Shown here piece after piece: positions 1 to 40,824 of a stretch of 64,000 bases of DNA. Below the pieces are notes generated by a model. The model saw only the letters and a list, made by a program, of their open reading frames with translations, was not told the DNA's origin and did not search any database. The translations under genes were made by a program, and so were the position numbers. The stretch comes from a virus. The DNA lies in the UHGV virus genome UHGV-1370141; one strand, given 5' to 3'. The first letter of the stretch is position 1, and each line of letters begins with the position of its first letter.

Positions 1-711
1 CCTAAAGGAATAATATATTTATAAATAAATATATTATACTATACGTGTGCGCACGCACACGCGTATAAGGAAGAGATCTTGAGATCAGGTTTTTGAGAGA
101 GTTAAATTTTTAAGATCGATCCGAGAGACTTGAGGTCTCTCGAGAGTATTTAAAAAACCAAGCAAGATAACTACTCAACTTGAATCTTCAGTGTGTGAAG
201 ATTCAAAACGTTGATCCAATCACTTGATCCGTTAGTACGCGAAGCGTGAATGTTTTTTTGATCGGCACGGCGGCTGGCCGTCGGGTGGCAGGGTCGGGTC
301 TCACCCACCCCCGGCAAGGGGTCGTACGCTTTCTCAATCGCTCCACATCGCGCTAAACGGGGTCAGGTAACCCAAGTGTACTGGGTAGGGGTAAAAACCG
401 CGTTAAAATCGTTTCTAGAGCGTTTTACGAAATCCGGTTAAAAAATCACCAACCGGATAGGGTTTCCAGAGACAATCCAGCACCCGGTTTTGGGGTTTGT
501 TGCGGTTTGGGTTAAAATAAATTCTTCGACAGGGAATAAAACCCCGTCAAATTCTTCCTGAGAAGCTCTCTAACGAGAAAAACTCACCCAGGGTATACGA
601 ACGTACCACCTCGACCTAAAAATGCGTTAGAATCGCTCTGAGGAGGTCGAAGTTTTTTTGGCAAAAAAAAAATAAAAAAAAACAGGTGGCCGAAGCCACC
701 CGATATTTTTT
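1..711. other. non-coding leader region with no ORF >=60 aa; AT-rich 5' part, 28-nt alternating purine-pyrimidine tract (approx 40..67), several short inverted repeats, GC-rich centre
   Basis: No ORF in six-frame track before 712; palindromes e.g. gagagac-ttgag-gtctctc (approx 123..141) and tgaatcttca-gtgtg-tgaagattca (approx 181..205). Confidence 0.5.
662..700 (-). terminator. intrinsic terminator for minus-strand transcripts (hairpin ggtggc-cgaa-gccacc followed on the minus strand by a long U-run)
   Basis: Stem approx 685..700; A-run 662..682 on plus strand is a T-run on minus; lies just downstream of the stop of CDS 712..1836. Confidence 0.5.
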
Positions 712-1836
712 TTACGGACAGACCTGTTCTTTCTGAGGGTAGTGCAGTTTTACCTCCAACAGGCTGTAGCCCGTGGCGTAGAAAATCTGACTCCCCACTG
801 AAGCCACAAAGCCTTCAGGGTCAATCACCTCAACGGAGAAATCCGATTCGAAAAGCCAGGTTTCTTGCTTACCGTCTCGTTCGAATACCGCTGCATAGCG
901 ACCGTACTCCGCACCCCGTCGGAAGCGGAAAAGCGTTAACCCTGTTTCACGTTCGTAACCGGAAATCACACCCCCTTCCTCGAAAATCTCGGCACGGTTA
1001 CAGCGGGTAACGGTCAATAACGCCGGTCGTTGTGTTGGAATGGTTTTGAACGGGGAAGGCCCTTCGTATGTCGTTGAGACCCAGTCTCCCATGTTGTCCA
1101 GCGCTAACGCTCGGTATGCGATAGGGGACTTGTAATTACACAGCCGATTCCCTTCCGTGTACATCGTGTATTCGATACGTAACGTCGTACCGACGATGTC
1201 TTCCAGGGAAAGTTTGTAGTGTTCTAACTGTGCCTGAATACGTCGTGAGAGTATCGTGCACAGGAAGGTGTGTCCTTCGGAAGAACGACAAACGATTCCG
1301 TAATCCGTTACGGCCAAAAGCGTCGCATCGGTTTTACGGACAGGTTCTAATCGGAATGTGTGTTCACCCGTTTCGATGATAAACTGGGAAACGGCTTGGT
1401 TACGGGATTTGACTTTAATCATGTCAAATACGTCACCGGCTTTTACGATTAATGGCTCAACAACGTTCACCTGGAAAGGCAAGGGTTTCGTGGGATACTG
1501 GCCTAGTGTGGTAATCGTTACCGAACTGAGTTCGGGGTCTGATGCGTCAGGGTCACTAGACAGCCAGTACGTTAACCACTTAGACAGCGTTTGTGGGATA
1601 ACACGGGTGGTGTAAAATAACACCTCGCCTTGTAACCCTGCTTCCGCCAGTTCTCGTGCTAAGAACGAGTTGACGGCGTCGTAAGTACCGTTACGCAGGA
1701 TGTCCATCCCACCGACTCTGTCCAGGTCACAAATCACGCCGTGAGGAAGCACCCACATCTTGACTTGTTGTTCGCGGTCGATGGTACCTTCACGCAACAT
1801 CTTGTGCCAAGCAGGTTTGCGCAGATAATTTCTCAT
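712..1836 (-). CDS. hypothetical protein (374 aa); ORF track gives 712..1869 from a GTG, but the ATG at 1836 has an AAAGGAG SD 8 nt upstream
   Basis: Long ORF; stop tta at 712..714; in-frame ATG (residue 12 of track ORF) preceded by AAAGGAG. Confidence 0.6.
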   Translation of the reverse strand: MRNYLRKPAWHKMLREGTIDREQQVKMWVLPHGVICDLDRVGGMDILRNGTYDAVNSFLARELAEAGLQGEVLFYTTRVIPQTLSKWLTYWLSSDPDASDPELSSVTITTLGQYPTKPLPFQVNVVEPLIVKAGDVFDMIKVKSRNQAVSQFIIETGEHTFRLEPVRKTDATLLAVTDYGIVCRSSEGHTFLCTILSRRIQAQLEHYKLSLEDIVGTTLRIEYTMYTEGNRLCNYKSPIAYRALALDNMGDWVSTTYEGPSPFKTIPTQRPALLTVTRCNRAEIFEEGGVISGYERETGLTLFRFRRGAEYGRYAAVFERDGKQETWLFESDFSVEVIDPEGFVASVGSQIFYATGYSLLEVKLHYPQKEQVCP

Positions 1837-1872
1837 GGTAAAAACTCCTTTAGGTAATAAGACTCTCACTAG

Positions 1873-1885
1873 GATAATATCTATC
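1873..1885 (-). promoter_or_regulatory. conserved AT-rich motif (plus-strand ATAATATCTATC), candidate phage promoter about 38 nt upstream of the minus gene start at 1836 and divergent to plus gene 1909
   Basis: Same 12-13 nt motif recurs at 46527..46539 and 55124..55136, related copy at 16661..16675, each 28-62 nt upstream of a minus-strand start codon. Confidence 0.3.
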
Positions 1886-1908
1886 CGTAATAATTTCGAG
1901 GTTCACTG

Positions 1909-3285
1909 ATGGCTGAACTGGTTTATGATTTTACCTCCGGTTGTTATCAAACCACCGGAACCCGCGTTGCTCAGGAATCGTTCGGTCACGACCCGTACTT
2001 CGACGACGCGGAAACCTCACCGGGTTTGTACTACGACTACGGTTTTGGTGGCTACGTACCGATGGGATTCTCCGTCGCTCACGAAGCCCGTCACGACGAC
2101 CGTTTACGTAAAGCGTTTGACAGCGTGTTTAACAAACTCGTGATTGATCGCAAGCTGGCGTCTAAGCTGCGTCACTACGTAAGCGGGATACTCTCTCGTG
2201 AAGGCAACGTGGAGTGGTTAGGGTCGAACCTCCTCGGTGTCCACAGCATTCGTTTTTTCGATTCTGACCGTAACCGTCTGTTCGATGAGGTGATTAACAT
2301 CGACGAAGACTATCTGTCAGAGTTGATTAAAGAGTCGCATTCCATCAATACCGATTGGCAGGTGGCGGGTGACACGTATAACCTGACCATCGTGTATCTG
2401 TTGCACCTGATGATTCCGAAGTTCGGTGACAAAGAGATTCTCGCTGCGGCTATCGACCTGGTGACGATTCTTCAGTTCAAATTTTACTCGAGTATTTACT
2501 ACCACTTCTTCCCGAAGCCGGTAGACTTACCTGCTGCCGAAGCCGCGTACTCGATGTTGTCGATGAAATTCGATATTCGTCGTTTAGGGAACTGGGGGTT
2601 GCACATGGCAGAACGTGCAACGTATTTCTGTTCTCCGGAATACCCTAACTACGATGCGGTAAAACGTTTCGATGCGCCGGATATGGTGTTGCGTTATATC
2701 ACCGACCTGAATACCCGTACGAAGCAAACCGTGAAAGACTACTACGCGGTGCTCGACCGTGTACGTCGTGAGAACGCTCGTGTGGTCAGCCAGTCGGCAC
2801 GTGTGGAATTAGACGGACAGTCGGTGATTCGTGACAAAGTCGGTGCGTTGGAAATCGCAAAACAGAACCTGTTTGATGCGTCTTACGATATCAACAATTT
2901 GTACAAAGAAGAGTTGGCGCGTGTGGTGCTGGAGATGGTACCGAAAGCGTCACCTGCGGCACTGAAAACGTTGCTGACGTATATCGCAGGACTCCCCATC
3001 GGGAAGAAACGTGATGAAGTTAACAGCATCATGGAAGACACGTTGTCTCACGCTTTTGACGAAATCGTTACCAACCGAATTAACTTCAATGATGCGGTCA
3101 CGGTATTACAGCGTATGCGTGCGTTGTACCAGGCGTCGAAATCGCCTAACCCGTATGTGTTGTCGTTGCGTTCTCGCATTGAGAAACTGGCAGCGAAAGA
3201 GACACACATTCGCCACGAGTCTGCGTTAGCTGCACTGCGTAACGCGCTACTGCTTTACTTCCTGATTCGTTCGTTACAGAAATAA
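1909..3285 (+). CDS. hypothetical protein (458 aa)
   Basis: Long ORF, ATG with GAGG SD about 6 nt upstream, followed by terminator hairpin. Confidence 0.65.
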   Translation: MAELVYDFTSGCYQTTGTRVAQESFGHDPYFDDAETSPGLYYDYGFGGYVPMGFSVAHEARHDDRLRKAFDSVFNKLVIDRKLASKLRHYVSGILSREGNVEWLGSNLLGVHSIRFFDSDRNRLFDEVINIDEDYLSELIKESHSINTDWQVAGDTYNLTIVYLLHLMIPKFGDKEILAAAIDLVTILQFKFYSSIYYHFFPKPVDLPAAEAAYSMLSMKFDIRRLGNWGLHMAERATYFCSPEYPNYDAVKRFDAPDMVLRYITDLNTRTKQTVKDYYAVLDRVRRENARVVSQSARVELDGQSVIRDKVGALEIAKQNLFDASYDINNLYKEELARVVLEMVPKASPAALKTLLTYIAGLPIGKKRDEVNSIMEDTLSHAFDEIVTNRINFNDAVTVLQRMRALYQASKSPNPYVLSLRSRIEKLAAKETHIRHESALAALRNALLLYFLIRSLQK

Positions 3286-3295
3286 AAAAAGAGTT

Positions 3296-3333
3296 AGCCT
3301 GAGACCCCGGTGGGTCTCAGGCTAGTTTATTTT
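3296..3333. terminator. bidirectional intrinsic terminator (stem agcctgagaccc / gggtctcaggct, loop cggt, A-run before and T-run after)
   Basis: 12-bp perfect stem between convergent genes 1909..3285 (+) and 3342..3581 (-). Confidence 0.6.
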
Positions 3334-3341
3334 AAAAGGCT

Positions 3342-3581
3342 TCAATGGGCCCCGGATACCGCTAATAGGTGGATGGTGTACACCAAGTTTAGAGCGTAAG
3401 TCGTTGATGTCCCTGCCACCATTAATCCGAATACTGCTACCGCCTGCGCATACCGCGTCGTACGATGACACACACCGTGCGATGCACCGTATCGTTCTAT
3501 CGATTGGTAACTGTGTCTAATCATTTTGTACGTCGCGATCCACGAAAAGAACACGAGCAAATAGTAAATTGGAGCCATCAC
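3342..3581 (-). CDS. small membrane protein (79 aa, two hydrophobic segments), translationally coupled to the upstream terminase gene
   Basis: ATG overlaps terminase stop (ATGA); hydrophobic stretches APIYYLLVFFSWIATY and AVAVFGLMVAGTSTTYALNLV. Confidence 0.45.
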   Translation of the reverse strand: MMAPIYYLLVFFSWIATYKMIRHSYQSIERYGASHGVCHRTTRYAQAVAVFGLMVAGTSTTYALNLVYTIHLLAVSGAH

Positions 3582-5686
3582 TTCATCCTCTGGCGTTGGA
3601 GAAGCTCTCTCAAGCTTTCCATTGACGCCACGTTTTGTGTATCAGTGTTAAGTTGAGAGATGAGGGCCTGAAGTCGGTTACGAGCGGCCATTGCTTGAAC
3701 CGGGTCGAGTAACCCGTGAGTCGTTCTCACTAACTGCTCAATTTCCCCCATCAGTTTTTGCTGTCGCGCTTCCTCTTCGAGCTGTAACTCTTCGTCCACC
3801 CCTTCCCGGTTTTCTGCCAAGTTACGATTACGCATCATCAATCGGCTGTTGTTGATCTCGTAATGTCCTAAGTTATTCCCAAGTAGCAATAACCACATCG
3901 CAAGTAACCAAGAAATCACAAGGTCATCGTGACCGGATGCTTTGTGGTCGATACGACCATTTTTCTCCACGAGGTTAAGAATTTGGTCGATGAGCTCTCC
4001 ACAACGGAGTTTATCGGCAGACAAGCGCAACGCGGTGGTGAATACCTCACCGTACAGTTTACGACGTTTCTCCTGGTCGGTTGAGAACCCGATGTATTTG
4101 CGGAATTTATTCCAGAATTTCTCTGCGCTCCCCACTGGGCCACGGTGATACTCTTTGTAGAGATCGTCCGTACGCGAGTAGTCCTGGGTGATTCGCACAA
4201 ACAAACGACGGTGTAAATCGGGTACCCGTGATTGCAATTGCAGGATAACCGCATCTGCAACGGATGAGCCTGTTGAGCGTCGTTCCAGAATCAGTACCGT
4301 GTTCGGATATCGCACCATAAAATCCGCTAAATGGATCGCGAACGAAATAACGTTGGATTCATTAACGGTAAGCTTACCGGCGTACTCGGCCGTGACTGAG
4401 TTGACGATGGACATGGCGATCGCATCTCGACCTACGGCTTCGGAGGTATCCAAACCGATGACATGACGATCTTTGAGTTTCATCATCATTTCTTCTTCGG
4501 TGTAGTACCAGTCGGTAACGTAGTTTTGTGGCGAGATATCTTTGAACACTGCACGCATTCGTGAAGCATTCATACGATCTGCATCTTCCGCTGAGAACGG
4601 CTTGTTCAGACCACCGGTCGTCCATTCGCCACCGAAGTCACGACGGATCTGGTCAGGGGTACCTTTGGCGTTCGCAATCATTGCCGCTAACTGTTCATCT
4701 GTGGTCCCGAGCTGACGGTGGTTGTACTTCACGTAGAACATGATACGTGGGACTTCTGCCGTGGAGTTAGAACGGATGATGTCAATGAGCTGTTTACGGG
4801 TTGGAATGTCGATATAGCGCTCATCCCACATAATCCCTGACGTCATCAGCTCGTACATGTACTTGCCTTCTTCCGTCGCTAAGTCACCAGGGGTTGTTGC
4901 GAATACGTTACCGTAAGGAACACCTTCCGCTTCGTTAATACGACGTGCCGCTGTACCGGATGCCAGCGCTGCCGGTAGAATGTGGTGTACGTTTTTGGTA
5001 AAGGGGCCTTCGTCCGAGAACAGACGACCAGCAGTAAGTCCACGACCGATACCGTTAGCGGACTCTGGGTCGTTTTGGCCGATACCTGTAATCAGTTTAT
5101 TACCCTGAGCTAAACACGCAAAGGTTTCTCGGTTATCTGGGTCATCAGGATGCGCTGGCCAGAGGTAACTCGGTAAACCGTTACGAAGTTGTTTCAGTTT
5201 GTTGATAGTTTCTTCACGCAGTGCCGGGCCTTTTGTGATAAGAATTGTTCGGGAGTTTTCTAAGAAACGAATCAACCACAGCAGTAAACCACTCATCCCG
5301 ACGGTTTTACCGTGCTGACGCAAGAACTCGACAGCAACGTCGATGTTGTTAAAGAAAATCCAGTACATCGAGAAGTTACCACGGTCGATACGGAACGGGG
5401 AACCGTACTTCATACCGTCCGCAGGCACCCTGACACATTCCCTGAACCAGTACCACGGGTTCTCAGCACATTCGATGGCGATGTATGCCTTCATCTGTTC
5501 TGAAAGGTTTTCATCGAACGGGTCTACGCCCTGCAACAGTGGGTTATGCAACGCCAGGTGAATATACCAGTGTTTGACACCCAGTTTTTTCAGTAAGTTA
5601 GCAAACTTGATAAAGGATTTGTTTGTTGTTTTATCGTCAACAATAGCGCCTGGATAATAACGCCAGTCCGATTCACGTAGTATCAT
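3578..5686 (-). CDS. terminase large subunit (ATPase plus nuclease), 702 aa
   Basis: Walker A-like FLRQHGKT; C-terminal RNase H-like nuclease motifs VIGLDTSEAVGRD and GHDDLVISW; ATG with AGGAG SD. Confidence 0.6.
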   Translation of the reverse strand: MILRESDWRYYPGAIVDDKTTNKSFIKFANLLKKLGVKHWYIHLALHNPLLQGVDPFDENLSEQMKAYIAIECAENPWYWFRECVRVPADGMKYGSPFRIDRGNFSMYWIFFNNIDVAVEFLRQHGKTVGMSGLLLWLIRFLENSRTILITKGPALREETINKLKQLRNGLPSYLWPAHPDDPDNRETFACLAQGNKLITGIGQNDPESANGIGRGLTAGRLFSDEGPFTKNVHHILPAALASGTAARRINEAEGVPYGNVFATTPGDLATEEGKYMYELMTSGIMWDERYIDIPTRKQLIDIIRSNSTAEVPRIMFYVKYNHRQLGTTDEQLAAMIANAKGTPDQIRRDFGGEWTTGGLNKPFSAEDADRMNASRMRAVFKDISPQNYVTDWYYTEEEMMMKLKDRHVIGLDTSEAVGRDAIAMSIVNSVTAEYAGKLTVNESNVISFAIHLADFMVRYPNTVLILERRSTGSSVADAVILQLQSRVPDLHRRLFVRITQDYSRTDDLYKEYHRGPVGSAEKFWNKFRKYIGFSTDQEKRRKLYGEVFTTALRLSADKLRCGELIDQILNLVEKNGRIDHKASGHDDLVISWLLAMWLLLLGNNLGHYEINNSRLMMRNRNLAENREGVDEELQLEEEARQQKLMGEIEQLVRTTHGLLDPVQAMAARNRLQALISQLNTDTQNVASMESLRELLQRQRMK

Positions 5687-5698
5687 ACAGACTCCTAA

Positions 5699-5722
5699 CC
5701 TCCTACCCTTGCGGGTAGGAGG
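5699..5722 (+). other. GC-rich stem-loop (cctcctaccc / gggtaggagg, loop ttgc) with T-run only on the plus strand; sits just 5' of the terminase SD on the minus strand
   Basis: 10-bp perfect inverted repeat between minus genes 5734..7374 and 3578..5686. Confidence 0.4.
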
Positions 5723-5733
5723 TCTTTTATTTT

Positions 5734-7374
5734 TTATTCGATGTGATGCGCAAGCATCGGTGACGCTGCAAGGTTAAGCGTATCGGTTGGAGTACGACGA
5801 ATCCAACGGATCACCAACGGTGCGTCTAACGGGACGCGGTAATCGATAACTTTCTTATCTAACCACTCGTCCACGCTGTAGGTGTAAACTTTACCCCCAA
5901 CGTGAATTTCGAAATGGGTAGGTTCAGGCGGTTCCGATTCGTTACGGCGATCGTACAACGGATAAATCGGTTCGTACAGCAGTTTAAGCCACTCTGCTTT
6001 CGAGCTGACTTTGTTACTGACGTCGATTTCCGAGTAGTTAACGTTGGAGTATTTGAATTCCGCCCATACGTTTTCACCGTATTTCTCACCGTCAGGCAGA
6101 TACTCCAGAATGAAGTTGGTGTTCAGTTCGTTACCTGGATTTACCAGTGTAATCGCAAAGGACTGCGACTGGATAAACGCACGGAACTTACTGTCTACCT
6201 TGCTGATGTCAACCTGGACGTTTAGACGCTGTTTCACACCCATCAATAGCGGGTCAAACGTGGTGCCCGTTGTGTAGTTGACGTGTGCTGTTGCATCGTA
6301 AACCTTACCACGCGTCAGGTTATACAACAGGAAGTCCAGACGATAACCACGGGTAGCATCCAACCATCTCGGTACCACAAACAGTTTCATGGAGTAAGCC
6401 CCATCAACCTGTTCGGTGACAGCGGTGTAGTTCTTCACGATGGTGTCACCAACGATATCCGTACCACCGTAAGTTTCCCCTTTCGAGAGTTTGTAACTCA
6501 GTACGCAAGGGAGACTGTTACCGGCGTTAGACGCGATGTAGAAGGTGTCATGAGAACCGGCGTTACGTAAACCGTTGAATTTCACACGCGCCTGGTCTAT
6601 CGGTAAACGTTTGGTACCGTCACTGTAAATCACATCACACCACAACGGAATAGAGTCGATAGGCATGTTGATAGGCAGTGTCAGCGTGGTACCGTCGTTG
6701 TCCACCAAGAACGGAGAAACCAGCTTAATGCCCAATACTGTACGAGCCGGTGTTTCCTGTGCCATCACCAGGTTGGTTTTGATGATGTGGGCATGGCCGA
6801 TTTGTACCACGTTACCTACGTCCGAGTACACGGCAAACATACACGCTTCACCGTTCTCAACGTCGGCTAAGCACGCGCCAGGTAGCGTTTGTTTAACAAC
6901 ACGTTCAGCGCCTTCCACCGAGATGGTCTGTACGGGCAGGTACGTGTATTTGAGTTTACCGTCTTTGTAATACCCCGACAGGATTTCTGCGTGGTCATCT
7001 ACGGTGCTCCCACGGAAGACACGTACACCGTCTACGTCAGGTCCTTCAAACGTCAACGCGTTATCCAAGACCATCGTTGCAGGCAGTTTTGAACTGTCCA
7101 CGTAGACACGGTATTTGTCACTTCGTAATGGGTAGTGGCCATTCAGACGTCCGTCCTGGTTGGCAACACCCACCCCACCCCACGGTTCAGTTTCCCACGA
7201 GGGTTTCGCGTAGTTAACGCTTACGACGATATCAAAACCAGAGGTGATATCGTTAACGATCAGATCTTTCGGGTTCGGTACGTAACCGGTAGGTCGTTCC
7301 GCCGCGTAAAGCTCCTCAGGACGCCATACACGGAAACCGCGATCCTTGTTGATAATGTCAGTTGTTAAGGCCAT
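5734..7374 (-). CDS. hypothetical protein (546 aa), possibly virion structural
   Basis: Long ORF in the terminase-proximal cluster; no recognisable motif. Confidence 0.6.
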   Translation of the reverse strand: MALTTDIINKDRGFRVWRPEELYAAERPTGYVPNPKDLIVNDITSGFDIVVSVNYAKPSWETEPWGGVGVANQDGRLNGHYPLRSDKYRVYVDSSKLPATMVLDNALTFEGPDVDGVRVFRGSTVDDHAEILSGYYKDGKLKYTYLPVQTISVEGAERVVKQTLPGACLADVENGEACMFAVYSDVGNVVQIGHAHIIKTNLVMAQETPARTVLGIKLVSPFLVDNDGTTLTLPINMPIDSIPLWCDVIYSDGTKRLPIDQARVKFNGLRNAGSHDTFYIASNAGNSLPCVLSYKLSKGETYGGTDIVGDTIVKNYTAVTEQVDGAYSMKLFVVPRWLDATRGYRLDFLLYNLTRGKVYDATAHVNYTTGTTFDPLLMGVKQRLNVQVDISKVDSKFRAFIQSQSFAITLVNPGNELNTNFILEYLPDGEKYGENVWAEFKYSNVNYSEIDVSNKVSSKAEWLKLLYEPIYPLYDRRNESEPPEPTHFEIHVGGKVYTYSVDEWLDKKVIDYRVPLDAPLVIRWIRRTPTDTLNLAASPMLAHHIE

Positions 7375-7376
7375 GA

Positions 7377-9893
7377 TTAACCCTTGATTTTCAGATACTG
7401 GTTCAGCTGAACTTCACCGTTCAGGTACCGTTCGTTTACGCGGTCTAAGAACGCAAAACCGAGTTCGTTGATTTCCACCGTCTCGTATTTGACGTGTGGG
7501 TGGAGTTTGACGAACGCTTTATCGTAGCCGATATACGCCGGGTCGAAGGGAAGCAGATCTTTGTAACGTTCCATGATCTCATCCAACTGAGTCGTTGAGA
7601 TACGGTAGTCAGGATCGTCTTCTCGCAGGATTAAAATACCGTTTAGGTAATCCCACATGATTTTGTTCAGTGTCGGCGAATACAGGTGGTATAAGTGCGG
7701 TAGCGGTACCGGGTTTTCAGGCGGTGGTGTTGGGAACCAGTGTGTCATGTAATTCTCAACACGCGTGTCCAGGTCTCGGGCAACGTCACGCAATTCGTAC
7801 GTGTCCCCGGTGACCATCGTCAGTAACGGGATAGTCGGGTCGTCAACCGAGTACGGATAACCGTCGTCAACGATATTGACCCCAACGGTGTTGTCTTCAC
7901 GGAACACCACTTCATCACGCAGCAGTAAAGAACCGCCAGCCACAACACGAATGACTTTGTCATCACGACAATCGAATTGGCTGTTGTTAGACAGTAAGCC
8001 ACTGGAGACAAACCCGTGTTTCGGTATACGCAGCATACCCGTTACTCCACGGCAGCGTACGGCGATATGGTTGTCTTCGTCGTCACTTACCCAGGACTTA
8101 CACACCACGACGATTTCAGGCCAAATAACGTGATAGTCGATACCGTGTACCAGCGGGTGGCCGTTTAACCACACTTCAACGGTTTCCATCGGAATCCACA
8201 GCGTACGCTGGTTCCCTTCCTGGTTACGTGCCATAATCGGAATACGGATTTCCCCTTCCCGTACTGCAAAGGTGGTCTCGAAGAACAGATGACGGTCGTC
8301 GTAAATCACCGTTGGATGACGTCGCGTTCTGTCTACCGACCAGGTAATCTTGTTCCCGTCCCGTTCGTAGTCCGTCCCTTCTACCGCTTCGATATACTCG
8401 TCACGAGGAATATCGTCAATGACTTTACGTAACCAGAGGTTAACGTTTTCACCTTCGTTAATCACGAAGTCATCGGCGTTATCGACAATGGTCACCGCGT
8501 CGTCTTTTGCCCCCGCAATCGCTTCGATAATGCGTGCGTTGGGATTACGAGCTTGGTAAACGTCATAACCTGTGTTTTGATGCGCCTCTAACAGTAAACC
8601 ATCACCGTCGTATTCGTATACGGTGGAGTTAACCGCCAGTAACGCAGGGAGCGTTGCACGATAACCACCTTCGGTTAAGGTCAGGCGCTGCGGTGTGTCA
8701 GCTGCGTAACGCGTAACGGCATTATAACCGTAAGCGTCAGTGCACAGGTCACGGTTAATGTTTTCCAGCTTAGCCGCAGCCAAACGGTTAAACGCAGCCT
8801 GTTCTAAGTTAGCCGCTTGCCACTCCGTTACGTTGGCGTTAGCGCCAATCATCGCGTCGATAATCAGCTCGTCAGTGAGACGATACAAATCGTGGACGTG
8901 GGACGAGTTATACAGCGGCGTAATGTCCAGATAGTCGTCACGGATAATAAGACGAATGACCAGTTCATCTAAGTCGGTGATAGACTCGTTAAAGACATTA
9001 CGGTATTTCGCAATGCGTTCAGTCGGGATTGCCAAATCGTTCCACGTTAGCTGACGCATCGCCTGGTGACGATGACGGTGGTAATAACGACCGCGACCTT
9101 TCCAGAACAGCTGAATTTCGGCGTCGTTGTTGAAAATCCAAATCCCGTCTTTTTTCGGAATGTGGAGCAAATACTTACGCTTGCTGTCGAGCGTAGACAT
9201 AAACGTCGGTAAGTCGCCACAACGGAATTCAACGATGCGGCGTACACGACCGTCAACACGAATGTCGATGTCGTCCCAGACTTTAATGTCTTGCGTTTTC
9301 GGTGAGTCGATTAATTCACCGTTTAACCAGAACTCAACGTAACCTTTATTCTGTTGCTTAAGTAGGTTATACCGATCGACGACTCTCTGAACCTGTTCGC
9401 GGTTAGGCGGTGAGAAATACTCAACGGTGGTTGGGTTAATATACGGTGCGTTTTCACCCCCACTGTAACCCGGATAAATTCGCAGGTAGCAGATGTCTTC
9501 TTCTAACCAGCTATAGCGATCGGATTGTGGGATAGCCATGTAAACCATCCCAGAGCTGGTGCGGTAAAAGTAGACGTACTCAGAGGGGATCGAAACTCCG
9601 CTCTCGTTGTAGACCAGCATCCAGGTACTGAAGCCGTTCACACACGTTGAAAGCTTCTTCCAACGGTTTAGGGGGATGGCTAAGTTCCCCCAGTTTACGT
9701 GAAGTTTATCAATAGCGAATGCGTGCCACCAGGTATTTTCTTTCGGTAGCGCTACCGGTGTCCGACCGTGTTTGAAAAAGCCGATCGCCCCGGTCTTGGG
9801 TGAAAGACGGAAGGGTGCAATGTTCAACACCCCGTCGAGATATGGACGCTGCCACGCTTTTTGGATGGCGTGGGCGACCAGCCAGTTCTCCAT
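7377..9893 (-). CDS. hypothetical protein (838 aa), possibly virion structural
   Basis: Long ORF tightly packed with neighbours. Confidence 0.6.
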   Translation of the reverse strand: MENWLVAHAIQKAWQRPYLDGVLNIAPFRLSPKTGAIGFFKHGRTPVALPKENTWWHAFAIDKLHVNWGNLAIPLNRWKKLSTCVNGFSTWMLVYNESGVSIPSEYVYFYRTSSGMVYMAIPQSDRYSWLEEDICYLRIYPGYSGGENAPYINPTTVEYFSPPNREQVQRVVDRYNLLKQQNKGYVEFWLNGELIDSPKTQDIKVWDDIDIRVDGRVRRIVEFRCGDLPTFMSTLDSKRKYLLHIPKKDGIWIFNNDAEIQLFWKGRGRYYHRHRHQAMRQLTWNDLAIPTERIAKYRNVFNESITDLDELVIRLIIRDDYLDITPLYNSSHVHDLYRLTDELIIDAMIGANANVTEWQAANLEQAAFNRLAAAKLENINRDLCTDAYGYNAVTRYAADTPQRLTLTEGGYRATLPALLAVNSTVYEYDGDGLLLEAHQNTGYDVYQARNPNARIIEAIAGAKDDAVTIVDNADDFVINEGENVNLWLRKVIDDIPRDEYIEAVEGTDYERDGNKITWSVDRTRRHPTVIYDDRHLFFETTFAVREGEIRIPIMARNQEGNQRTLWIPMETVEVWLNGHPLVHGIDYHVIWPEIVVVCKSWVSDDEDNHIAVRCRGVTGMLRIPKHGFVSSGLLSNNSQFDCRDDKVIRVVAGGSLLLRDEVVFREDNTVGVNIVDDGYPYSVDDPTIPLLTMVTGDTYELRDVARDLDTRVENYMTHWFPTPPPENPVPLPHLYHLYSPTLNKIMWDYLNGILILREDDPDYRISTTQLDEIMERYKDLLPFDPAYIGYDKAFVKLHPHVKYETVEINELGFAFLDRVNERYLNGEVQLNQYLKIKG

Positions 9894-9903
9894 AGTGGAC
9901 CTC

Positions 9904-10809
9904 TTACTGGATATTTAAGGGTTTGGTATTCTGGTTCAGTAATGTATCGTAAGCGATGGTAAACGCATCTTTACGTTTTGCTACGTCACATTTCTTAATC
10001 AGCCCACCCAAACGTGAACGGTTGAACACCGAGTTTTCTAAACAGGTGCGGACAATCACAAACAGCGATGGCGGATATTCGATGGCGCTCGTTACCAACT
10101 GGCGGTCGTAGCTGATGTAGCTGCCTAAGCTGGTCGCCAGCATTGACTGCAAGCTAACCACGCTCAGTTCATTAAGACGTGGGATGCCTGCTGCTTTAAC
10201 CATCTCAACGAATTCACCGATATTACGCGGGAACAGAAACTCGGTATTACCGGTGACGGTTTCGAAAAACTGTGGCGAAAGTCGCAGTTCACGTTCCAAC
10301 TGCTGCTGCATACGCAGCATTTTTACTTCATCTTCGAAGTTGTTATAGAACTGTCCTACGGAAAACAGCGCTGCGAGTGCCTTGACTTGACCGCTTTGAT
10401 ATGGAGCAAGTGCATAGGTGTGTTCAATCGCATCGCTAATCCACCTGCTGAAGATCTCATGGTGATAAGACATTCGGGCCATCAACGCACCGAGCTTATC
10501 ATTGTTCCGTTTCCACACTAATTCCCAACGTGCTTCGTCTAGACGTAATTGGTGCTCAATGGGGTTACGAATTTTTAACTCGCCGTTTTTATCGAGCGTC
10601 GTAAAAGTTCGTGCGTCAACGTACACGTCATCACCAATGACGATAGGTAACGGGAACGGTTTTACATCGGCTGTTTCGATAACGTAATGGACTTCTTCAG
10701 ACTGAGCAACAGTTTGGTTAACCTTACGAGCCAATTCCAAGTCCGCGTGTAAGCGGGTAAGGTCTATGGTATTAAAGGGAGTGCCGTTGTAAGCGTTTTT
10801 GAGTGCCAT
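9904..10809 (-). CDS. hypothetical protein (301 aa)
   Basis: ORF with ATG start; divergent from 10872 (+). Confidence 0.55.
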   Translation of the reverse strand: MALKNAYNGTPFNTIDLTRLHADLELARKVNQTVAQSEEVHYVIETADVKPFPLPIVIGDDVYVDARTFTTLDKNGELKIRNPIEHQLRLDEARWELVWKRNNDKLGALMARMSYHHEIFSRWISDAIEHTYALAPYQSGQVKALAALFSVGQFYNNFEDEVKMLRMQQQLERELRLSPQFFETVTGNTEFLFPRNIGEFVEMVKAAGIPRLNELSVVSLQSMLATSLGSYISYDRQLVTSAIEYPPSLFVIVRTCLENSVFNRSRLGGLIKKCDVAKRKDAFTIAYDTLLNQNTKPLNIQ

Positions 10810-10871
10810 GAGTATGATACCTTAGTATGACCCTTTTTCAAGGTCTTAAAGACTGAATATGGAGACGTTCC

Positions 10872-12929
10872 ATGAGTTTTATTCCACGAAACGGCGCGCC
10901 GTTGAATAACAAGCAGGGGTGGCAGGACAATTCTGTCCCTGAGCTTGTTCGGACCCCCACGGGTGATCCGATTCATAAGCCGCTGATCTTCACCTTTGCT
11001 TCACGCGGGGTAGACGACGAGGCGTTCCCGTTATCCGGGGATAATGCATTGTCTCTGCTTGGTCGCGATCTGTTCGACCTGCGTGGCGATTACGCGACGT
11101 TTAACACACCTTTCCAGGCGATGTTCAACGCTAACGGTAACGATTGCATGTATCAGCGCCTGGTACCGGATGATGCGAAAACCGCAGCTATCCGTCTGGT
11201 TGCTGACGTACTGGAAACGAAAGTTCCCGCTTATGAGCGTGTGAACGGCGTGATTCAGTACGACGTAAGCGGTAAGCCGAAAGTCAGAGAACAGGTAGAC
11301 GGTCTGAAAATCGTCTTCCGACTGTCCGTCATCGAAGATGTCAGCAACGTAAAAGCGGGCACCGTCACCGAAGGTACGATGACTGATACCGAGACTCAGG
11401 CGAAATCAAAACTCTATCCGATTTTTGATATCAAAGGTCCGTACGCGGGTGCTGATGTCAACGGATTTGGTTTCAAACTGGTTCCGCTGAACGAAAAATC
11501 CAGCCCGTCTATTGCGTCTGCTTATCAGACGAATGTAGGCGGACGTATGTACGCACTGCAATGGTTTGAGACCTTAGCAGGGGTAACATCACCGGTGATT
11601 TGGAAGACCCTCAAAGGTCTTAGCAGCATCAATGTTAGCTTCAAGCCCGATGCATACTATCAGCCGATGAGCACCCAGCTGGACTTCGAAGTCGTCGTTC
11701 CAGATGCGTATCGTCAGACGATGCCGGATATCGGTGGTCTGCCGGATTACGGCCCGTTCGAAGAGTTTTACATCTACCGCGAAAACCTGGAAACGGTGCT
11801 GAAACTGGCCCAATCTAAGATTCAAAACGCAAAACCGGCAATTACCGATCCGTATATGGTCGATATTTTCGGTGGCGTTGACTTAACCGGTCAGCTCTAC
11901 GACGGTTTACAAGTTAACCCGTCTGAAGAAGTAGGTAAAATTGTTTTCTCTGCTTCGAATATCCACTACCTGCAAGGCGGTAGTAACGGGACCATGAACA
12001 ACGATGTTTACGACGAACTGGTTCGCCGTGAAATGTCTCTGTTCCCGGACGGTGGTAAAGTCCGCTACGATAACGAACTGAAATACTCTCTGGGTTGCTT
12101 CTGGGACTCCGGCTTCAGCATGGATACCAAGAAAGCCCTGACGAACTTCATCGGTCGTTCTCGTAACACGTTCCTGACTCTTTGCACTCACGTTTACAAC
12201 CAAGGTCGTAACGATCTGCAAACGGAAGAGAACGTGAAGACAGCGCTGATCGAAATGATCACGTCTGTACCTGAATCGTCTTATTACGGTACCCCAGCGT
12301 GCCGTGGGATGATTTGTGGTCAGGACGCCTACATCCGTAACTCCTCTTACAAGAAACCGGTTCCGATGTGTTACAGCATCGCGAACTTCTTCTCGAAGTA
12401 TCTGGGTTCCGGTGAAGGTCGCGCTAAACCTGCTTATCGCTTCAGCCGTGGTGAAGAGACGATTATCGAAGATCTGTACGATCTGAGTATGCCGTGGAAA
12501 GGTAACGAGATTTACGCATCCGACTGGGATGTGTCACTGGTTACTGCACGTTCCCGCGACTACTATCGTTTGTTCATCCCAGCACTTCAGTCCATCTATA
12601 GCGAAGAACGTTCAGTGCTGAATAACGCACTGTTTAACTTCATCATGACCTACGTTTATCGTGTCAGTGATCAAGTTTGGGCAGATATGTCCGGTGAGAG
12701 CCGTATGACGGACGACGAACGCGCGAAAATGATTGAGAACAAAATCACCGAGCGTTTGGAAGGTCGCCTGGATAGTATTGCCAACATTACTCCGAGTGCG
12801 TACATGACAGCGGATGACAAAGCTAACGGCTATTCCATCACGCTGGACATTAAAGCTGAAGGCGGTGTACTGTTGACGCAGTTCAACACGACGATCAAAG
12901 TTTATCGTCGCGACAGTACGGAGAGCTAA
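10872..12929 (+). CDS. hypothetical structural protein (685 aa); tail sheath is a tentative guess from size and order only
   Basis: ATG with GGAG SD 7 nt upstream; followed 3 nt later by a 291-aa ORF and a strong terminator. Confidence 0.55.
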   Translation: MSFIPRNGAPLNNKQGWQDNSVPELVRTPTGDPIHKPLIFTFASRGVDDEAFPLSGDNALSLLGRDLFDLRGDYATFNTPFQAMFNANGNDCMYQRLVPDDAKTAAIRLVADVLETKVPAYERVNGVIQYDVSGKPKVREQVDGLKIVFRLSVIEDVSNVKAGTVTEGTMTDTETQAKSKLYPIFDIKGPYAGADVNGFGFKLVPLNEKSSPSIASAYQTNVGGRMYALQWFETLAGVTSPVIWKTLKGLSSINVSFKPDAYYQPMSTQLDFEVVVPDAYRQTMPDIGGLPDYGPFEEFYIYRENLETVLKLAQSKIQNAKPAITDPYMVDIFGGVDLTGQLYDGLQVNPSEEVGKIVFSASNIHYLQGGSNGTMNNDVYDELVRREMSLFPDGGKVRYDNELKYSLGCFWDSGFSMDTKKALTNFIGRSRNTFLTLCTHVYNQGRNDLQTEENVKTALIEMITSVPESSYYGTPACRGMICGQDAYIRNSSYKKPVPMCYSIANFFSKYLGSGEGRAKPAYRFSRGEETIIEDLYDLSMPWKGNEIYASDWDVSLVTARSRDYYRLFIPALQSIYSEERSVLNNALFNFIMTYVYRVSDQVWADMSGESRMTDDERAKMIENKITERLEGRLDSIANITPSAYMTADDKANGYSITLDIKAEGGVLLTQFNTTIKVYRRDSTES

Positions 12930-12932
12930 TAG

Positions 12933-13808
12933 ATGTCCATCAAAGAACGCATGATTTTACCTGACCAGGGCTTGCATGTTGACGGTGGTCAGTACGACAT
13001 GGTCAACCCGTTCAGCTCGGGTCAAAACGGTCCGGTCGGACAGGTTGGTAAGTTTGTTACCAACGCCCACCGTCTGCGTCGTAACGTAATCGCCCGTGTG
13101 ATGGAATTCCCTCGCTGGGTTGATTACATGCCGAACCCACAATTGTGGCGTCAGGCAATCAAATCGTTTATCGAGGTTCACACCACGATTACCGGTTTGG
13201 ATAAATCCCTGAGTGCTGAGTACGTGCAGACCCAACAGGGTCGTAACAACCGCGTCCAGTATGAAGCTGGTCTGGTAACGGAAGCTCTGTCTTCTGTTAC
13301 GCACACTACCCCGGATAAACTGGGTAAAGTGTATCAGAACATGCTCTGGGCGTGGCTGGTATACGGTGTTTGTGACCCGCACACAGGCCACCCTGGTCTG
13401 GCGGCAATCAACCCGAACGTTCCTGACCACCTGCCGGATATGTATAGCATGACTGTGCTGTACTTCGAACCGGATGCGTATCAGCGTAAACCGCAGAACG
13501 CATGGTGGCTGACCAACATGGCTCCTGAGTCTAACGGTCAGGATATCGGTGAACGTGACCCGAACACTGGTCCGCAAACTAACGAACTGTCCATCACCTT
13601 TACCTCCCAGCAATGGACAGGTTGGGGCCCGATGCAGGCAGCGCAGAAGGAACTGGAACGTATGAAACTGTACGGTCTGCGTCCTTACGAGCGCAAACTG
13701 TGGCTCACTCCGTCTCAACAGACCGACGGTATCAACCCAGACGTCGATGCTACGGCTGGCGGTTATCGTTCTGTGTCCGACGAGCAGATGGCCAATCAGC
13801 TTCGTTAA
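12933..13808 (+). CDS. hypothetical structural protein (291 aa); tail tube is a tentative guess
   Basis: Co-directional and adjacent to the 685-aa ORF; terminator downstream. Confidence 0.5.
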   Translation: MSIKERMILPDQGLHVDGGQYDMVNPFSSGQNGPVGQVGKFVTNAHRLRRNVIARVMEFPRWVDYMPNPQLWRQAIKSFIEVHTTITGLDKSLSAEYVQTQQGRNNRVQYEAGLVTEALSSVTHTTPDKLGKVYQNMLWAWLVYGVCDPHTGHPGLAAINPNVPDHLPDMYSMTVLYFEPDAYQRKPQNAWWLTNMAPESNGQDIGERDPNTGPQTNELSITFTSQQWTGWGPMQAAQKELERMKLYGLRPYERKLWLTPSQQTDGINPDVDATAGGYRSVSDEQMANQLR

Positions 13809-13824
13809 GAAAAAAAAATAAGTT

Positions 13825-13860
13825 TACCTACCTCCGTAAAGGAGGTAGGTACTTTTTTAT
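13825..13860. terminator. bidirectional intrinsic terminator (stem tacctacctcc / ggaggtaggta, loop gtaaa, flanked by A-run and T-run)
   Basis: 11-bp perfect stem between convergent genes; same stem reused at 37529..37553. Confidence 0.65.
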
Positions 13861-14417
13861 TTTTCTTCCGTTCCCAGGACTTTCGATGCGGATGCACGGA
13901 TGATTAAGTTTTTCATTTGCATCAACAACAGGAAGGTTGAAATTAAATCGTAAGTGGTCGGTGGGGTGTTGGTGATATCGTCAGGATAAGCGAGTTTCCA
14001 CAGCGTTAATTCGTTGGAACCCTCACCTTTTTCGTTACGTACGATTTCGTTGTCGTGTAACGAAACCAGTTCACGTTCAAGGGAATCGATAACATCTTTA
14101 CCGAATTCGATTAACAGTAACTGTTTGAAACGAATAACAAAACCGGCGATAACGTTACCTGAAGCCGTTGATCTGATTTCAGTTAGGAAACGTTGATATC
14201 CGTTGATGGTGTGGGGGATGGTTTCAGCAGGCCAGCCTGCAATGTGTGGGAACGCATCTTCCAACACAGATTTCATTGACAGCGTAAAGACTTCACCGAT
14301 TTGGTTTAGGCGATTAATAACCTCAGTGCGCGTCATGACGTTAGGTAACGGTTTTACATCATCGACAATCTGATGTCCTGGTGTAACAGGCCCACCAAAA
14401 AGGTTAGGATTTGACAT
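13857..14417 (-). CDS. hypothetical protein (186 aa)
   Basis: ATG at 14417 preceded by AGGAG SD. Confidence 0.55.
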   Translation of the reverse strand: MSNPNLFGGPVTPGHQIVDDVKPLPNVMTRTEVINRLNQIGEVFTLSMKSVLEDAFPHIAGWPAETIPHTINGYQRFLTEIRSTASGNVIAGFVIRFKQLLLIEFGKDVIDSLERELVSLHDNEIVRNEKGEGSNELTLWKLAYPDDITNTPPTTYDLISTFLLLMQMKNLIIRASASKVLGTEEK

Positions 14418-14443
14418 TTTATATCTCCTGAGATCAAAAAAAT

Positions 14444-14480
14444 AAGGCGGTCATAAAACCGCCTTAACTTTTATTTTCTC
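14444..14480. terminator. intrinsic terminator hairpin (aaggcggt / accgcctt) with flanking A- and T-runs
   Basis: 8-bp stem inside the 200-bp non-coding gap 14418..14621. Confidence 0.5.
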
Positions 14481-14621
14481 CGTCGATGCGACAGATACAC
14501 CAAACCGTCAATCGGTTTAGGTAACCCTAACGTTCTGGAGAGTGGGTTCTGCCAGGCCGTAGGGTTAATCGGTGTAGGAGGGATATAGGTACGTTTTACC
14601 TTCCCTCCGAGTATCGCAACC

Positions 14622-15104
14622 TTATTCGTCGTCTTCGTCATCGGAAGCCATCATGTCCGCAGCGAATTGCTTACGAAGTTTGCCTTCCAGTGCTTTAGAC
14701 TTCGGCACACCGTAACCGAAACCGATGGATGCAGCCCATTCTTTCTGGCTGATGGTGTCCCCGGTCGGGCGAGAGAACACCGTGGAGAACGATGCGTTGC
14801 CGATTTCGGTGGTGATGTTCATCGCGGCCAACTCAGCATCGGCTTTCGCTTTTTCCACAATCAGACCAGAAGCGACTTTCCCGTACACTTCCAGGAAGTT
14901 AGCATCGTGTTGACGAACCGCGTCGGCGTCTTTCAGCGTTAAGCGATAGTCAGTATCGTTAACTTTGATAACCGGCAGCGTTTCTTCATAAATTTTTACC
15001 ATCGGGTCAGCGTTGACCACCAGGTCGTCGTTCATGGTCATTGCCGGAGTTTCCAGTGCATCGATCATTGCAGCCAGGTCTTTGATAGAAGTTACTTTAG
15101 CCAT
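14622..15104 (-). CDS. hypothetical protein (160 aa) with strongly acidic C-terminal tail (ASDDEDDE)
   Basis: ORF; acidic tail seen in some phage SSB or scaffold proteins, function not assigned. Confidence 0.55.
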   Translation of the reverse strand: MAKVTSIKDLAAMIDALETPAMTMNDDLVVNADPMVKIYEETLPVIKVNDTDYRLTLKDADAVRQHDANFLEVYGKVASGLIVEKAKADAELAAMNITTEIGNASFSTVFSRPTGDTISQKEWAASIGFGYGVPKSKALEGKLRKQFAADMMASDDEDDE

Positions 15105-15125
15105 TAGTTTTATTCCTTCAGGTTA

Positions 15126-15797
15126 TTACTGGTTTTGGATACGACTTTCTAAGTCGTTGGTGATTTCAAAAGTAAAGTGCTCGAGGCTGAGCATCTCTAC
15201 GTACTCTTGACGTTCCAGAATCTCTTTCGCGAAGAGTTTCTCGTACCACTCTGGAACGCGAGATTTGCCATTACGACCGAACTTTTCTTGTACGTGACGA
15301 ATCGCATGGAACTTCGAATCGGTAACGGATTTTCCATGGTCACGTGCGTATAAGTAAGAGCGGTACATGTAATTTTTCACTTCATCGATAGAAGGGATAC
15401 CACGATCCGCAGCCGCGACAATTTCGGATACGATAGAGTTGTACCCGCCTTTGTGTGAACTGCGATGTTCTAGTACCGCGTAAGCTATCTCGGTAACGTC
15501 ATCACAGGTAAGCTTAAAGCGACGTTTTAGAATCGGTGCAGAATCCAGAACGTAGTTGAAGGCTTTGATGTGATGGGAAGCACGATCGGCTTTAGTTGAG
15601 AAAATGTCATGTGCTGCCACAGCGACCAGGATATTTTTAAGGTGCTTAGACTCACCCAGCAGATAAGCAATGCGAATGGCATTAGACTTCACTGACTGGA
15701 TGTGGTCGATACGGTGGGCGCTGTCTGTGTAGCGATAGAAATCGCGGAATTGAGCAATGACTTGTTCCCAGAATTTGTTAATTTCGATAGCTTCCAT
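15126..15797 (-). CDS. HD-domain phosphohydrolase-like protein (223 aa)
   Basis: H..H then HD spacing (HRIDHIQSV ... VAAHDIFS), consistent with HD superfamily metal-binding motif. Confidence 0.4.
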   Translation of the reverse strand: MEAIEINKFWEQVIAQFRDFYRYTDSAHRIDHIQSVKSNAIRIAYLLGESKHLKNILVAVAAHDIFSTKADRASHHIKAFNYVLDSAPILKRRFKLTCDDVTEIAYAVLEHRSSHKGGYNSIVSEIVAAADRGIPSIDEVKNYMYRSYLYARDHGKSVTDSKFHAIRHVQEKFGRNGKSRVPEWYEKLFAKEILERQEYVEMLSLEHFTFEITNDLESRIQNQ

Positions 15798-15818
15798 TTA
15801 TAAAACCTTACATGTCGA

Positions 15819-16208
15819 TTAGGAGAATGTGAACTGGCAGCGGATTAACATCAGACGTAAGTCGTGCCAACTGTCAGGTTGTTGAATGATATTCCGATAG
15901 AGCAGATGGTCAGAACTCACCGCTCGGGCAAGTTCTTGTACCATGTCTGCTAACGTCGGTGCCTTTAACCGATGTGTTTTACGCCACGTAGGAGACATCA
16001 TACGGACATAAAACGCATCAGCTGGTTCTAGGGTATTACTTTCCTCTTTAAGCGTCTCTAAACGCGTCTCCTCACGTTTTACGTGATTGCTCAACGCTTG
16101 TGGGTCTTTGACGAAAGTATAGAATCTGTCGTCTCGCCGTAGGCTGCACAGCAACCACAGTGTGAACGGGTCACGACAGACCTCGATAAGTTCTTTTGAC
16201 CATTTCAT
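15819..16208 (-). CDS. hypothetical protein (129 aa)
   Basis: ORF in co-directional gene string. Confidence 0.5.
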   Translation of the reverse strand: MKWSKELIEVCRDPFTLWLLCSLRRDDRFYTFVKDPQALSNHVKREETRLETLKEESNTLEPADAFYVRMMSPTWRKTHRLKAPTLADMVQELARAVSSDHLLYRNIIQQPDSWHDLRLMLIRCQFTFS

Positions 16209-16209
16209 C

Positions 16210-16599
16210 TTAGCTACCTACGCTAGAAAGCATCCAATTGTTTCTGATGGCGTTAATTTGTTTAACGGATTCCCGAATACCTTCAAATAGTTCGATGCGT
16301 TCCGATGTGGAAAGACACTGTTTAAGATCTTTATCGAGAGAGAACAGCATCGCCAGTTTTGCAAGCGAAACACTCAAGATATCAGACAATTCATTGTTTC
16401 TACGCCACTCGGGATTACGGAAGATAGTCACCAGACGTCCGATGCTTTCGCAAGGACATTCTTTGTTCAGTAGTTTGTCACGTTGCTCGCACAGATAAGC
16501 CTCATCTGTAATTAATCGTTCCAGGTCATCTGGACGCATGATTGCACGAGTAGAAATCATTAGTACAACAAACGGGTCTTTGAATAATTCGTTTTTCAT
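16210..16599 (-). CDS. hypothetical protein (129 aa)
   Basis: ORF; AAAGGAG SD upstream of ATG. Confidence 0.55.
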   Translation of the reverse strand: MKNELFKDPFVVLMISTRAIMRPDDLERLITDEAYLCEQRDKLLNKECPCESIGRLVTIFRNPEWRRNNELSDILSVSLAKLAMLFSLDKDLKQCLSTSERIELFEGIRESVKQINAIRNNWMLSSVGS

Positions 16600-16660
16600 C
16601 TTTAATACTCCTTTAGGTTAACAAGTCGAATAGCGTGTAATTCTACAACGCTCACCTAAG

Positions 16661-16675
16661 TAATATATATCTAAG
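16661..16675 (-). promoter_or_regulatory. AT-rich promoter-like motif (plus-strand TAATATATATCTAAG; minus strand reads CTTAGATATATATTA) about 62 nt upstream of the minus gene start at 16599
   Basis: Related to the ATAATATCTATC motif at three other sites. Confidence 0.25.
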
Positions 16676-16689
16676 ATATTTTTCAATAG

Positions 16690-16733
16690 GGCTAAAAATA
16701 AGTAGGGTAGTCTATCCAATGGATAGACTACCC
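16690..16733 (-). terminator. intrinsic terminator (stem gggtagtctatcc / ggatagactaccc, loop aat, U-run on minus strand)
   Basis: 13-bp perfect stem directly downstream of minus gene 16742..17293. Confidence 0.6.
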
Positions 16734-16741
16734 GAGAGGTT

Positions 16742-17293: not shown

Positions 17294-17350
17294 ATTTGGT
17301 TATCCTTTGTAATTTTCCTCCGACACAGTAAACGGTAGAAATTGTAAAAA

Positions 17351-40823: not shown

Positions 40824-40824
40824 G

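Follow-up and report, generated by a model that had tools for sequence, protein, structure and literature searches.

The 64-kb stretch of viral DNA analysed here (hereafter, the window) contains four copies of a directional, AT-rich element which are very probably early promoters of an SPN3US-like jumbo phage (phiKZ-related and nucleus-forming), read by its virion RNA polymerase (vRNAP). The element recurs well above expectation, always has the same orientation relative to the next gene, keeps its place in divergent relatives and matches published early-promoter consensuses. From these properties we infer vRNAP binding, early transcription and the exact start base; the terms "early" and "vRNAP" rest on analogy with phiKZ, 201phi2-1 and AR9, because our search of the literature on SPN3US-like phages found no start-site or promoter study, and thus no start-site, time-course or polymerase-dependence data. 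A first-pass annotation of this DNA had suggested a phage promoter, possibly recognised by the phage-encoded RNA polymerase, and that suggestion now gains support from the vRNAP genes in the window, the published consensus, the conservation of the sites and the non-virion operons, ending in terminators, that follow them. The element belongs to an already known promoter class, so that the finding is correct but expected, and it reveals no new mechanism.

A directional element of about 40 nt

The 12-mer ATAATATCTRTC is found exactly at positions 1874-1885, 46528-46539 and 55125-55136 (plus-strand coordinates; copies 1 to 3). The recurring AT-rich motif of the first-pass annotation is therefore real, its 13-nt ranges being one base off these 12-mers. 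Three matches compare with 0.42 ± 0.59 expected when up to one mismatch is allowed, and none of 100 shuffles reached three. The related copy reported at 16661-16675 (TAATATATATCTAAG; copy 4) was also confirmed: its minus strand reads TATATTAC at 16660-16667, and it turns out to be the best member of the family and the nearest to its consensus (50.8 bits). The start codons given for the neighbouring genes (1836, 46498, 55094 and 16599 on the minus strand; 1909 and 46571 on the plus strand) were all recovered, and the distances between motif and minus-strand ATG, previously put at 28-62 nt, are 37, 29, 30 and 61 nt for copies 1, 2, 3 and 4, respectively.

Once reverse-complemented, the copies remain similar past the 12 nt (...CGAAATTATTACGGATAGATATTATCCTAGTGAGAG; ...CAAAAAGAAGTCAGACAGATATTATTTACGTGAGAC; ...TAAAAACTTTCTTAGATAGATATTATTCAGGTGTAG; ...GAAAAATATCTTAGATATATATTACTTAGGTGAGCG). 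On the minus strand, all four share an asymmetric element of about 40 nt, aAAAA..TTTCAGATAKATATTAY-(6N)-G(AG), which spans approximately -35 to +3 and thus extends far beyond the repeated word. The core is GATATTAT in three copies and TATATTAC in copy 4, and a G is located exactly 6 nt past TATTAY in four of four copies at the sequence level. Further upstream, a TTTC at about -23 to -20 and an A-tract at about -33 to -28 are present in the window sites as well as in those of phage SPN3US (see below). The pattern derived from these features, ATATTAYNNNNGTG, has four exact matches in the window, all of them on the minus strand.

A PWM scan of the window returned four sites at 32-36 bits, the rest being noise. 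Similarly, a 42-column PWM made from 11 exact SPN3US sites alone placed the same four copies on top, at 50.8, 32.6, 24.8 and 18.6 bits, the next score being 10.4 bits, while 20 shuffles gave 8.8 bits at most. Across the two matrices, the next-best window score is 10.4-10.7 bits and the shuffle maxima are 8.8 and 17.2 bits. No weaker copy emerged above noise in the window with either PWM, and the total is exactly four; a one-mismatch match at 43025-43038, which has no PWM score, was rejected as a copy.

According to our rough gene map, 95.8% of the window is coding. As all four copies are intergenic (copy 3 overlaps just the stop codon and 3' end of its upstream gene) and weaker copies are absent, the motif does not show the similar frequency inside coding regions which the first-pass annotation had named as evidence against a promoter. 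Each copy is co-oriented with a minus-strand gene that begins 23-54 nt downstream, a distance corresponding to the predicted leader. In oriented upstream regions, enriched 7-mers are mostly ribosome-binding and start-codon words; TAGATAT, ATATTAT and GATATTA also appear, as a weak signal given four sites. Rfam and tRNA scans of the window gave no matches.

An SPN3US-like phage with its own virion RNA polymerase

The window shares approximately 75% DNA identity with the jumbo phages phiEaH2, Asesino, SPAsTU and SPN3US. It runs colinear with the SPN3US RefSeq genome from 239 kb to 176 kb, in inverted orientation, and parts of it are 99% identical to a 107-kb IMG/VR contig. It thus derives from an SPN3US/phiEaH2-like jumbo phage. 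With respect to its nearest metagenomic relatives, the window is a mosaic. For example, contig IMGVR_UViG_3300014543_000002 has 99% identity to gene 712-1836 but only 60% to gene 16210-16599, the latter gene being 95% identical to IMGVR_UViG_3300045988_113438; the promoter upstream of 16210-16599 is retained in all of them.

Of the five SPN3US vRNAP subunits, four (gp241, gp240, gp218 and gp244) have orthologs in the window, identified on the basis of PHROGs matches and synteny, the identities and sizes of the SPN3US subunits being taken from the literature (PMC5105663). To move between gene numberings for SPN3US, we used the relation that the literature gene number equals 266 minus the RefSeq tag number, which was verified with the genes for terminase, sheath and major capsid protein. 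The beta-N subunit (ortholog of gp241) is encoded at 21718-25884 on the minus strand (1388 aa) and the beta'-N subunit (ortholog of gp240) at 25888-27513 on the minus strand (541 aa); both match PHROG families annotated as "RNA polymerase beta subunit" (3148 and 2986, respectively), and neither gene has the motif upstream. The beta-C subunit (ortholog of gp218) is encoded at 47708-48376 (minus strand, 222 aa) and matches PHROG 3233, which bears the same annotation. Finally, the minus-strand ORF 19174-19908 (244 aa) belongs to PHROG 2926, a virion structural protein, and is the ortholog of gp244, a virion protein for which the role of vRNAP beta'-C subunit has been proposed. A Pfam search left the divergent RNA polymerase subunits of the window unrecognised.

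Conservation in SPN3US and relatives

Over the whole SPN3US genome, ATATTAYNNNNGTG matches exactly at 11 places, every one of them on the gene-sense strand, and PWM sites above 14 bits number 22 on this strand versus one on the other. Twenty of the 22 sense-strand sites are intergenic with respect to the annotation, and all 22 lie shortly upstream of genes that lack a virion-protein annotation. Some of these sites head operons containing RNA polymerase subunit genes outside the five virion subunits, which presumably encode the second, non-virion polymerase (nvRNAP). No SPN3US PWM site was found before vRNAP subunit genes or annotated virion-protein genes.

Each of the four window sites has its ortholog in SPN3US and in phiEaH2-type and other contigs, and the loci taken from further relatives all bear the element in the corresponding place. 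In SPN3US, the four correspond to sites 238165, 223261, 191586 and 184028 (the last, at 184028-184069, being the ortholog of the site at copy 3), ahead of orthologous genes whose proteins are 56, 28, 47 and 36% identical to those of the window. The zone from -35 to +3 is 79% identical between the window and SPN3US, whereas the remainder of these intergenic regions reaches 56% (Fisher p = 6e-6). The orthologs of copy 2 are the most diverse (downstream proteins down to 33% identity), and among them the block TCAAAAAGAAnTCAGACAGATATTATCT....GAGA stands out of a variable spacer. Moreover, the G at +1 and the AG that follows are fixed in orthologs while the preceding GT varies (ACTGAG, TCCGAG, GATGAG), as expected of a start site.

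As a negative control, we searched the 15-base core GATAGATATTATNNNNGTG through IMG/VR. Matches were found in SPN3US-like jumbo contigs and in about 70 unrelated viral contigs; the latter carry the core by chance, with scores under 14 bits and no flanking signal, so that among these matches the flanking signal is restricted to jumbo-type contigs.

Four predicted promoters and their transcription units

Under the mechanism that we favour, a multisubunit vRNAP would be injected together with the DNA and would recognise the directional element on the minus strand through its A-tract (about -33 to -28), its TTTC (about -23 to -20), the block AGAYAKA (-19 to -13) and the AT-rich core TATTAY (-12 to -7). 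After six variable bases, transcription would start at an invariant G, usually followed by AG. Each of the resulting leaders would carry a Shine-Dalgarno site and would be followed by one to five non-virion genes and by a strong intrinsic terminator. We describe the four predicted promoters (P1 to P4, numbered as the copies; all on the minus strand and delimited from -35 to +7) and their units in order of position along the window.

P1 (1861-1902) reads ACCTCGAAATTATTACGGATAGATATTATCCTAGTGAGAGTC, with TATTAT at 1874-1879, and scores 24.8 bits. It lies in the divergent intergenic region 1837-1908, and its predicted start, the G at 1867, leaves a 31-nt leader to the ATG at 1836. Orthologous sites are present in six related contigs. 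The predicted early unit 1 (712-1836) consists of one gene (374 aa, PHROG 8136), ortholog of SPN3US RefSeq gp003, and ends at a terminator at 683-702.

P4 (16647-16688) is the strongest of the four and reads TATTGAAAAATATCTTAGATATATATTACTTAGGTGAGCGTT, with TATTAC at 16660-16665. Its predicted start is the G at 16653, from which a 54-nt leader, predicted to open with a stem-loop, would lead to the ATG at 16599. Just 5' of P4, an intrinsic terminator (16705-16733, minus strand; 13-bp stem followed by a T-rich tail) closes the upstream unit (gene 16742-17293); the same order of terminator, then promoter, is found in SPN3US, with a different stem sequence. The predicted early unit 4 (14471-16599) comprises five small genes (16210-16599, 15819-16208, 15126-15797, 14622-15104 and 14471-14641), which correspond to SPN3US RefSeq gp017-gp013, and ends at a bidirectional terminator at 14443-14466.

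P2 (46515-46556) reads TTTTCAAAAAGAAGTCAGACAGATATTATTTACGTGAGACAT, with TATTAT at 46528-46533, and scores 32.6 bits. The predicted start is the G at 46521, with a 23-nt leader to the ATG at 46498, again within a divergent intergenic region (46499-46570). This site is kept in 10 related loci. The predicted early unit 2 (42342-46498) contains five genes (45950-46498, 45104-45919, 43833-45107, 43001-43864 and 42342-43001), corresponding to SPN3US RefSeq gp045-gp041, and ends at a terminator at 42310-42337.

Finally, P3 (55112-55153) reads CGCTAAAAACTTTCTTAGATAGATATTATTCAGGTGTAGAAC, with TATTAT at 55125-55130; its predicted start is the G at 55118 and its leader to the ATG at 55094 would be 24 nt long. 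It overlaps the stop codon of the co-directional upstream gene 55132-55803. P3 has the lowest score (18.6 bits) and deviates past +1, with GTAG in place of GAG. In AR9, one departure from the consensus can be enough to render a predicted early promoter silent (PMC5312081), so individual weak copies may be inactive. The predicted early unit 3 (53301-55094) holds three genes (54357-55094, 53807-54355 and 53301-53789) and ends at a terminator at 53276-53295.

In a PHROGs search, the genes downstream of the four sites matched solely families of unknown function, so gene content cannot confirm the timing of their expression. These four units and their predicted starts nevertheless provide a usable map of an otherwise unannotated SPN3US-like stretch, and the element could serve for early-gene annotation in metagenomic jumbo-phage contigs and for promoter choice in engineering.

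As regards terminators in general, terminator-like hairpins exceed dinucleotide shuffles in both segments considered (34 vs 20.8 in 1-20000 and 26 vs 19.7 in 40001-60000), and bidirectional terminators are found in the window at 13825-13851 and 51371-51400, in addition to the one that ends unit 4.

Divergent plus-strand genes

The first-pass annotation also had the motif feeding the divergent plus-strand genes that start at 1909 and 46571. This part found no support: the element has a direction, and its plus-strand scores stay below 10 bits, neither of the two PWMs giving any signal toward divergent genes in the window. In SPN3US, a 15.3-bit reverse match is present in the gp045/gp046 spacer, but the window does not keep it. 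The two plus-strand genes, 1909-3285 and 46571-47035, are each separated from the opposite gene by a spacer of 72 nt (1837-1908 and 46499-46570, respectively). Since the minus-strand promoter occupies most of this spacer, the promoters of the plus-strand genes themselves must either overlap it or be located within the opposite gene; no motif emerged as a candidate for them.

Elsewhere in the window, two TATGAY words (TATGATA and TATGACC) are located at 10813-10832 on the plus strand, within a divergent spacer of 62 nt that precedes the tail-sheath gene (10872-12929). As phiKZ late promoters carry TATG at the start site, these words could be a late promoter, read by the nvRNAP. TATGAY was rejected as a general late motif, most of its other upstream matches being start-codon context.

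Leader features and possible site classes

The predicted early transcripts of the strongest-consensus sites carry a stem-loop at their 5' terminus, whose sequence varies (GAGCGTTGTAgaaTTACACGCT in the window, at 16600-16653 on the minus strand; GAGAGTTactactaAACTCTC in SPN3US). Among sites of at least 40 bits, the 5' end is paired in 82% of cases vs 45% in shuffles, and the mean minimum free energy is -5.5 vs -2.5 kcal/mol, both comparisons being indicative since the sites are not independent. In addition, many SPN3US genes in operons driven by the motif have a conserved leader box, AATCGACYATTA, located 5-10 nt ahead of their Shine-Dalgarno sequence (for example at 23831, 57146, 65455, 94280, 114030, 167592, 223318 and 224197). 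The counterpart of this box in the window is a degenerate version alone, TATTCGACTTGTTAACC, at 16609-16630 (minus strand). An unexplained motif shared by early 5' UTRs has also been reported in AR9 (PMC5312081).

These features raise the somewhat doubtful possibility of two functional classes of sites. Class A may include the sites with a near-perfect TATATTAC-type consensus (copy 4 of the window and about seven SPN3US sites), whose transcripts may begin with the predicted stem-loop of variable sequence and, in SPN3US, may also bear the leader box; it would form an immediate-early regulon subject to post-transcriptional control or stabilisation of its mRNAs. Class B may include the GATATTAT-type sites (copies 1-3 of the window), without these leader features. 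If so, mRNA control in class A could matter during the early infection vesicle stage of nucleus-forming phages.

Alternative interpretations

Because phages of this family have two polymerases and the sequence alone cannot tell which one binds, the four sites might instead be promoters of the nvRNAP, driving middle or late genes, all the more as some phiKZ genes have both early and middle promoters (PMC8244752). However, the known nvRNAP motifs are different: the phiKZ late motif has TATG at the start, the phiKZ middle motif, located near -22 to -24, is a weak AT-rich/TACT element, and the AR9 late motif is AACA-(6N)-TA/G. The element contains neither late consensus and it is not located ahead of annotated virion-protein genes, either in the window or in SPN3US. 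It is instead a near base-for-base match to the early consensus and, in SPN3US, it heads operons that include the presumed nvRNAP subunit genes. An nvRNAP promoter therefore appears improbable.

In T4-type phages, early transcription is carried out by the bacterial RNA polymerase. Under a comparable scheme, the four copies would be host sigma70 promoters, with TATTAT as the -10 box and the A-tract acting as an UP-like element. The core does resemble a -10 box, being located at the predicted -12 to -7 and matching TATAAT at five of six positions (TATTAT) or four of six (TATTAC), and copy 2 just reaches the threshold of a lenient scan (TTTTCA-17-TATTAT, 9/12). The earlier statement that the motif is "not sigma70-like" thus goes too far for the core, while it holds for the remainder: there is no conserved -35 box of the TTGACA type, 16-18 bp ahead of the -10 hexamer, and the additional conserved positions (-19 to -13 and the GAG at +1), which are the best conserved of all, correspond to no base-specific requirement of sigma70. 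Furthermore, the other three copies fail the lenient scan, and the strongest sites have TATTAC and so lack the critical T at -7. Sigma70-like sites are also fewer in the window than in dinucleotide shuffles (14 vs 22.2 ± 5.0 in 1-20000 and 14 vs 29.9 ± 4.5 in 40001-60000), and infection by phiKZ-type phages is reported to be independent of the host RNA polymerase (PMC7598289). We thus regard host promoters as very improbable.

A site bound by a phage DNA-binding regulator rather than by a polymerase could account for the imperfect palindrome AGATA-T-TATCT seen in some copies. TAGATATTATCTA is indeed palindromic in many SPN3US-type sites, and one SPN3US site scores 15.3 bits on the opposite strand too. 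However, the palindrome is missing from the strongest and most conserved sites (AGATATATATTACYTAGGTGAG), the flanks are asymmetric and the sites are divided between the two strands 4:0 in the window and 22:1 in SPN3US. The element also invariably points toward the next gene and lies at a constant, small distance from it, which a symmetric operator would not need, and an operator is accordingly most unlikely. Lastly, although intergenic DNA is AT-rich and short AT words do recur in it, chance recurrence is refuted by the shuffle counts, by the recovery of the sites with an independent PWM and by the conservation of some 40 nt at the same position across divergent genomes.

Comparison with known promoters

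Early promoters read by the vRNAP remain the best explanation by far, and they can be compared with promoters described in other systems. According to a review, early operons of every RNA polymerase-encoding jumbo phage have an AT-rich motif, about 10 nt long and centred at -10, which has proved to be the early (vRNAP) promoter wherever it was tested (PMC7598289). Sigma70 promoters share a TATAAT-like hexamer at -12 to -7 with our element, which differs from them by the absence of a -35 box, by its conserved positions at -19 to -13 and +1 to +3, and by a polymerase presumed to be sigma-independent.

In AR9, early promoters conform to AAATATATATTAT-(6N)-G(+1), as established by dRNA-seq and primer extension on 41 validated sites, and transcription likewise begins 6 nt past the element in phiKZ and phiR1-37 (PMC5312081). 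The window element shares with AR9 the ATATTAT core, the six-base spacer and the G start (AR9 leaders being at least 26 nt long), as well as, by inference for the window phage, its reading by an injected multisubunit vRNAP. AR9 differs by its uracil-containing DNA, the lack of a phage nucleus and the upstream half of the motif (AAATAT, versus CAGATAK here).

Early promoters have been predicted in several phages related to phiKZ: TTTCARRYAKATATTATYWAAGTGWA in N1M2, TTTYARRYAKATATTATYWWADTG in OBP, ...TATATTACDWHDGTG in 201phi2-1 and TATATTAC in phiKZ itself (PMC7058600, Table 2). Copy 4 and the strongest SPN3US sites contain this phiKZ core without any change. As in our sites, the AT-rich box of phiKZ and 201phi2-1 lies about 10 bp before the start, with conserved blocks near -20 and -30, and the promoters are located ahead of genes for hypothetical proteins. 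Two differences are that three of the four window copies have GATATTAT rather than TATATTAC, and that the upstream blocks differ in sequence; moreover, the starts of phiKZ and 201phi2-1 were mapped by RNA-seq, 5' RACE, dRNA-seq and ONT-cappable-seq, whereas those of the window are predicted.

A very close likeness is seen with OBP and N1M2, whose motifs are bioinformatic predictions. The N1M2 consensus, TBYAWWWWWTTTCARRYAKATATTATYWAAGTGWA, has 31 copies (PMC7058600), and ours, aAAAA..TTTCAGATAKATATTAYCTAnGTGAG, is a near base-for-base match to the early promoters predicted in these two phages. Shared features are TTTCA-GAT-AKATATTAY-C/T-T/A-A-n-GTG and the upstream A/T-rich tract, the number of copies (tens per genome, with an equivalent density in the 64-kb window) and the position at the head of operons whose functions are mostly unknown. 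The +2/+3 positions differ, being WA in OBP and N1M2 and AG in the window phage, and so does the lineage, as the latter is SPN3US/phiEaH2-like, with enterobacterial hosts. The vRNAP would thus have almost the same promoter specificity in SPN3US-like enterobacterial phages as in the distant OBP/N1M2 lineage.
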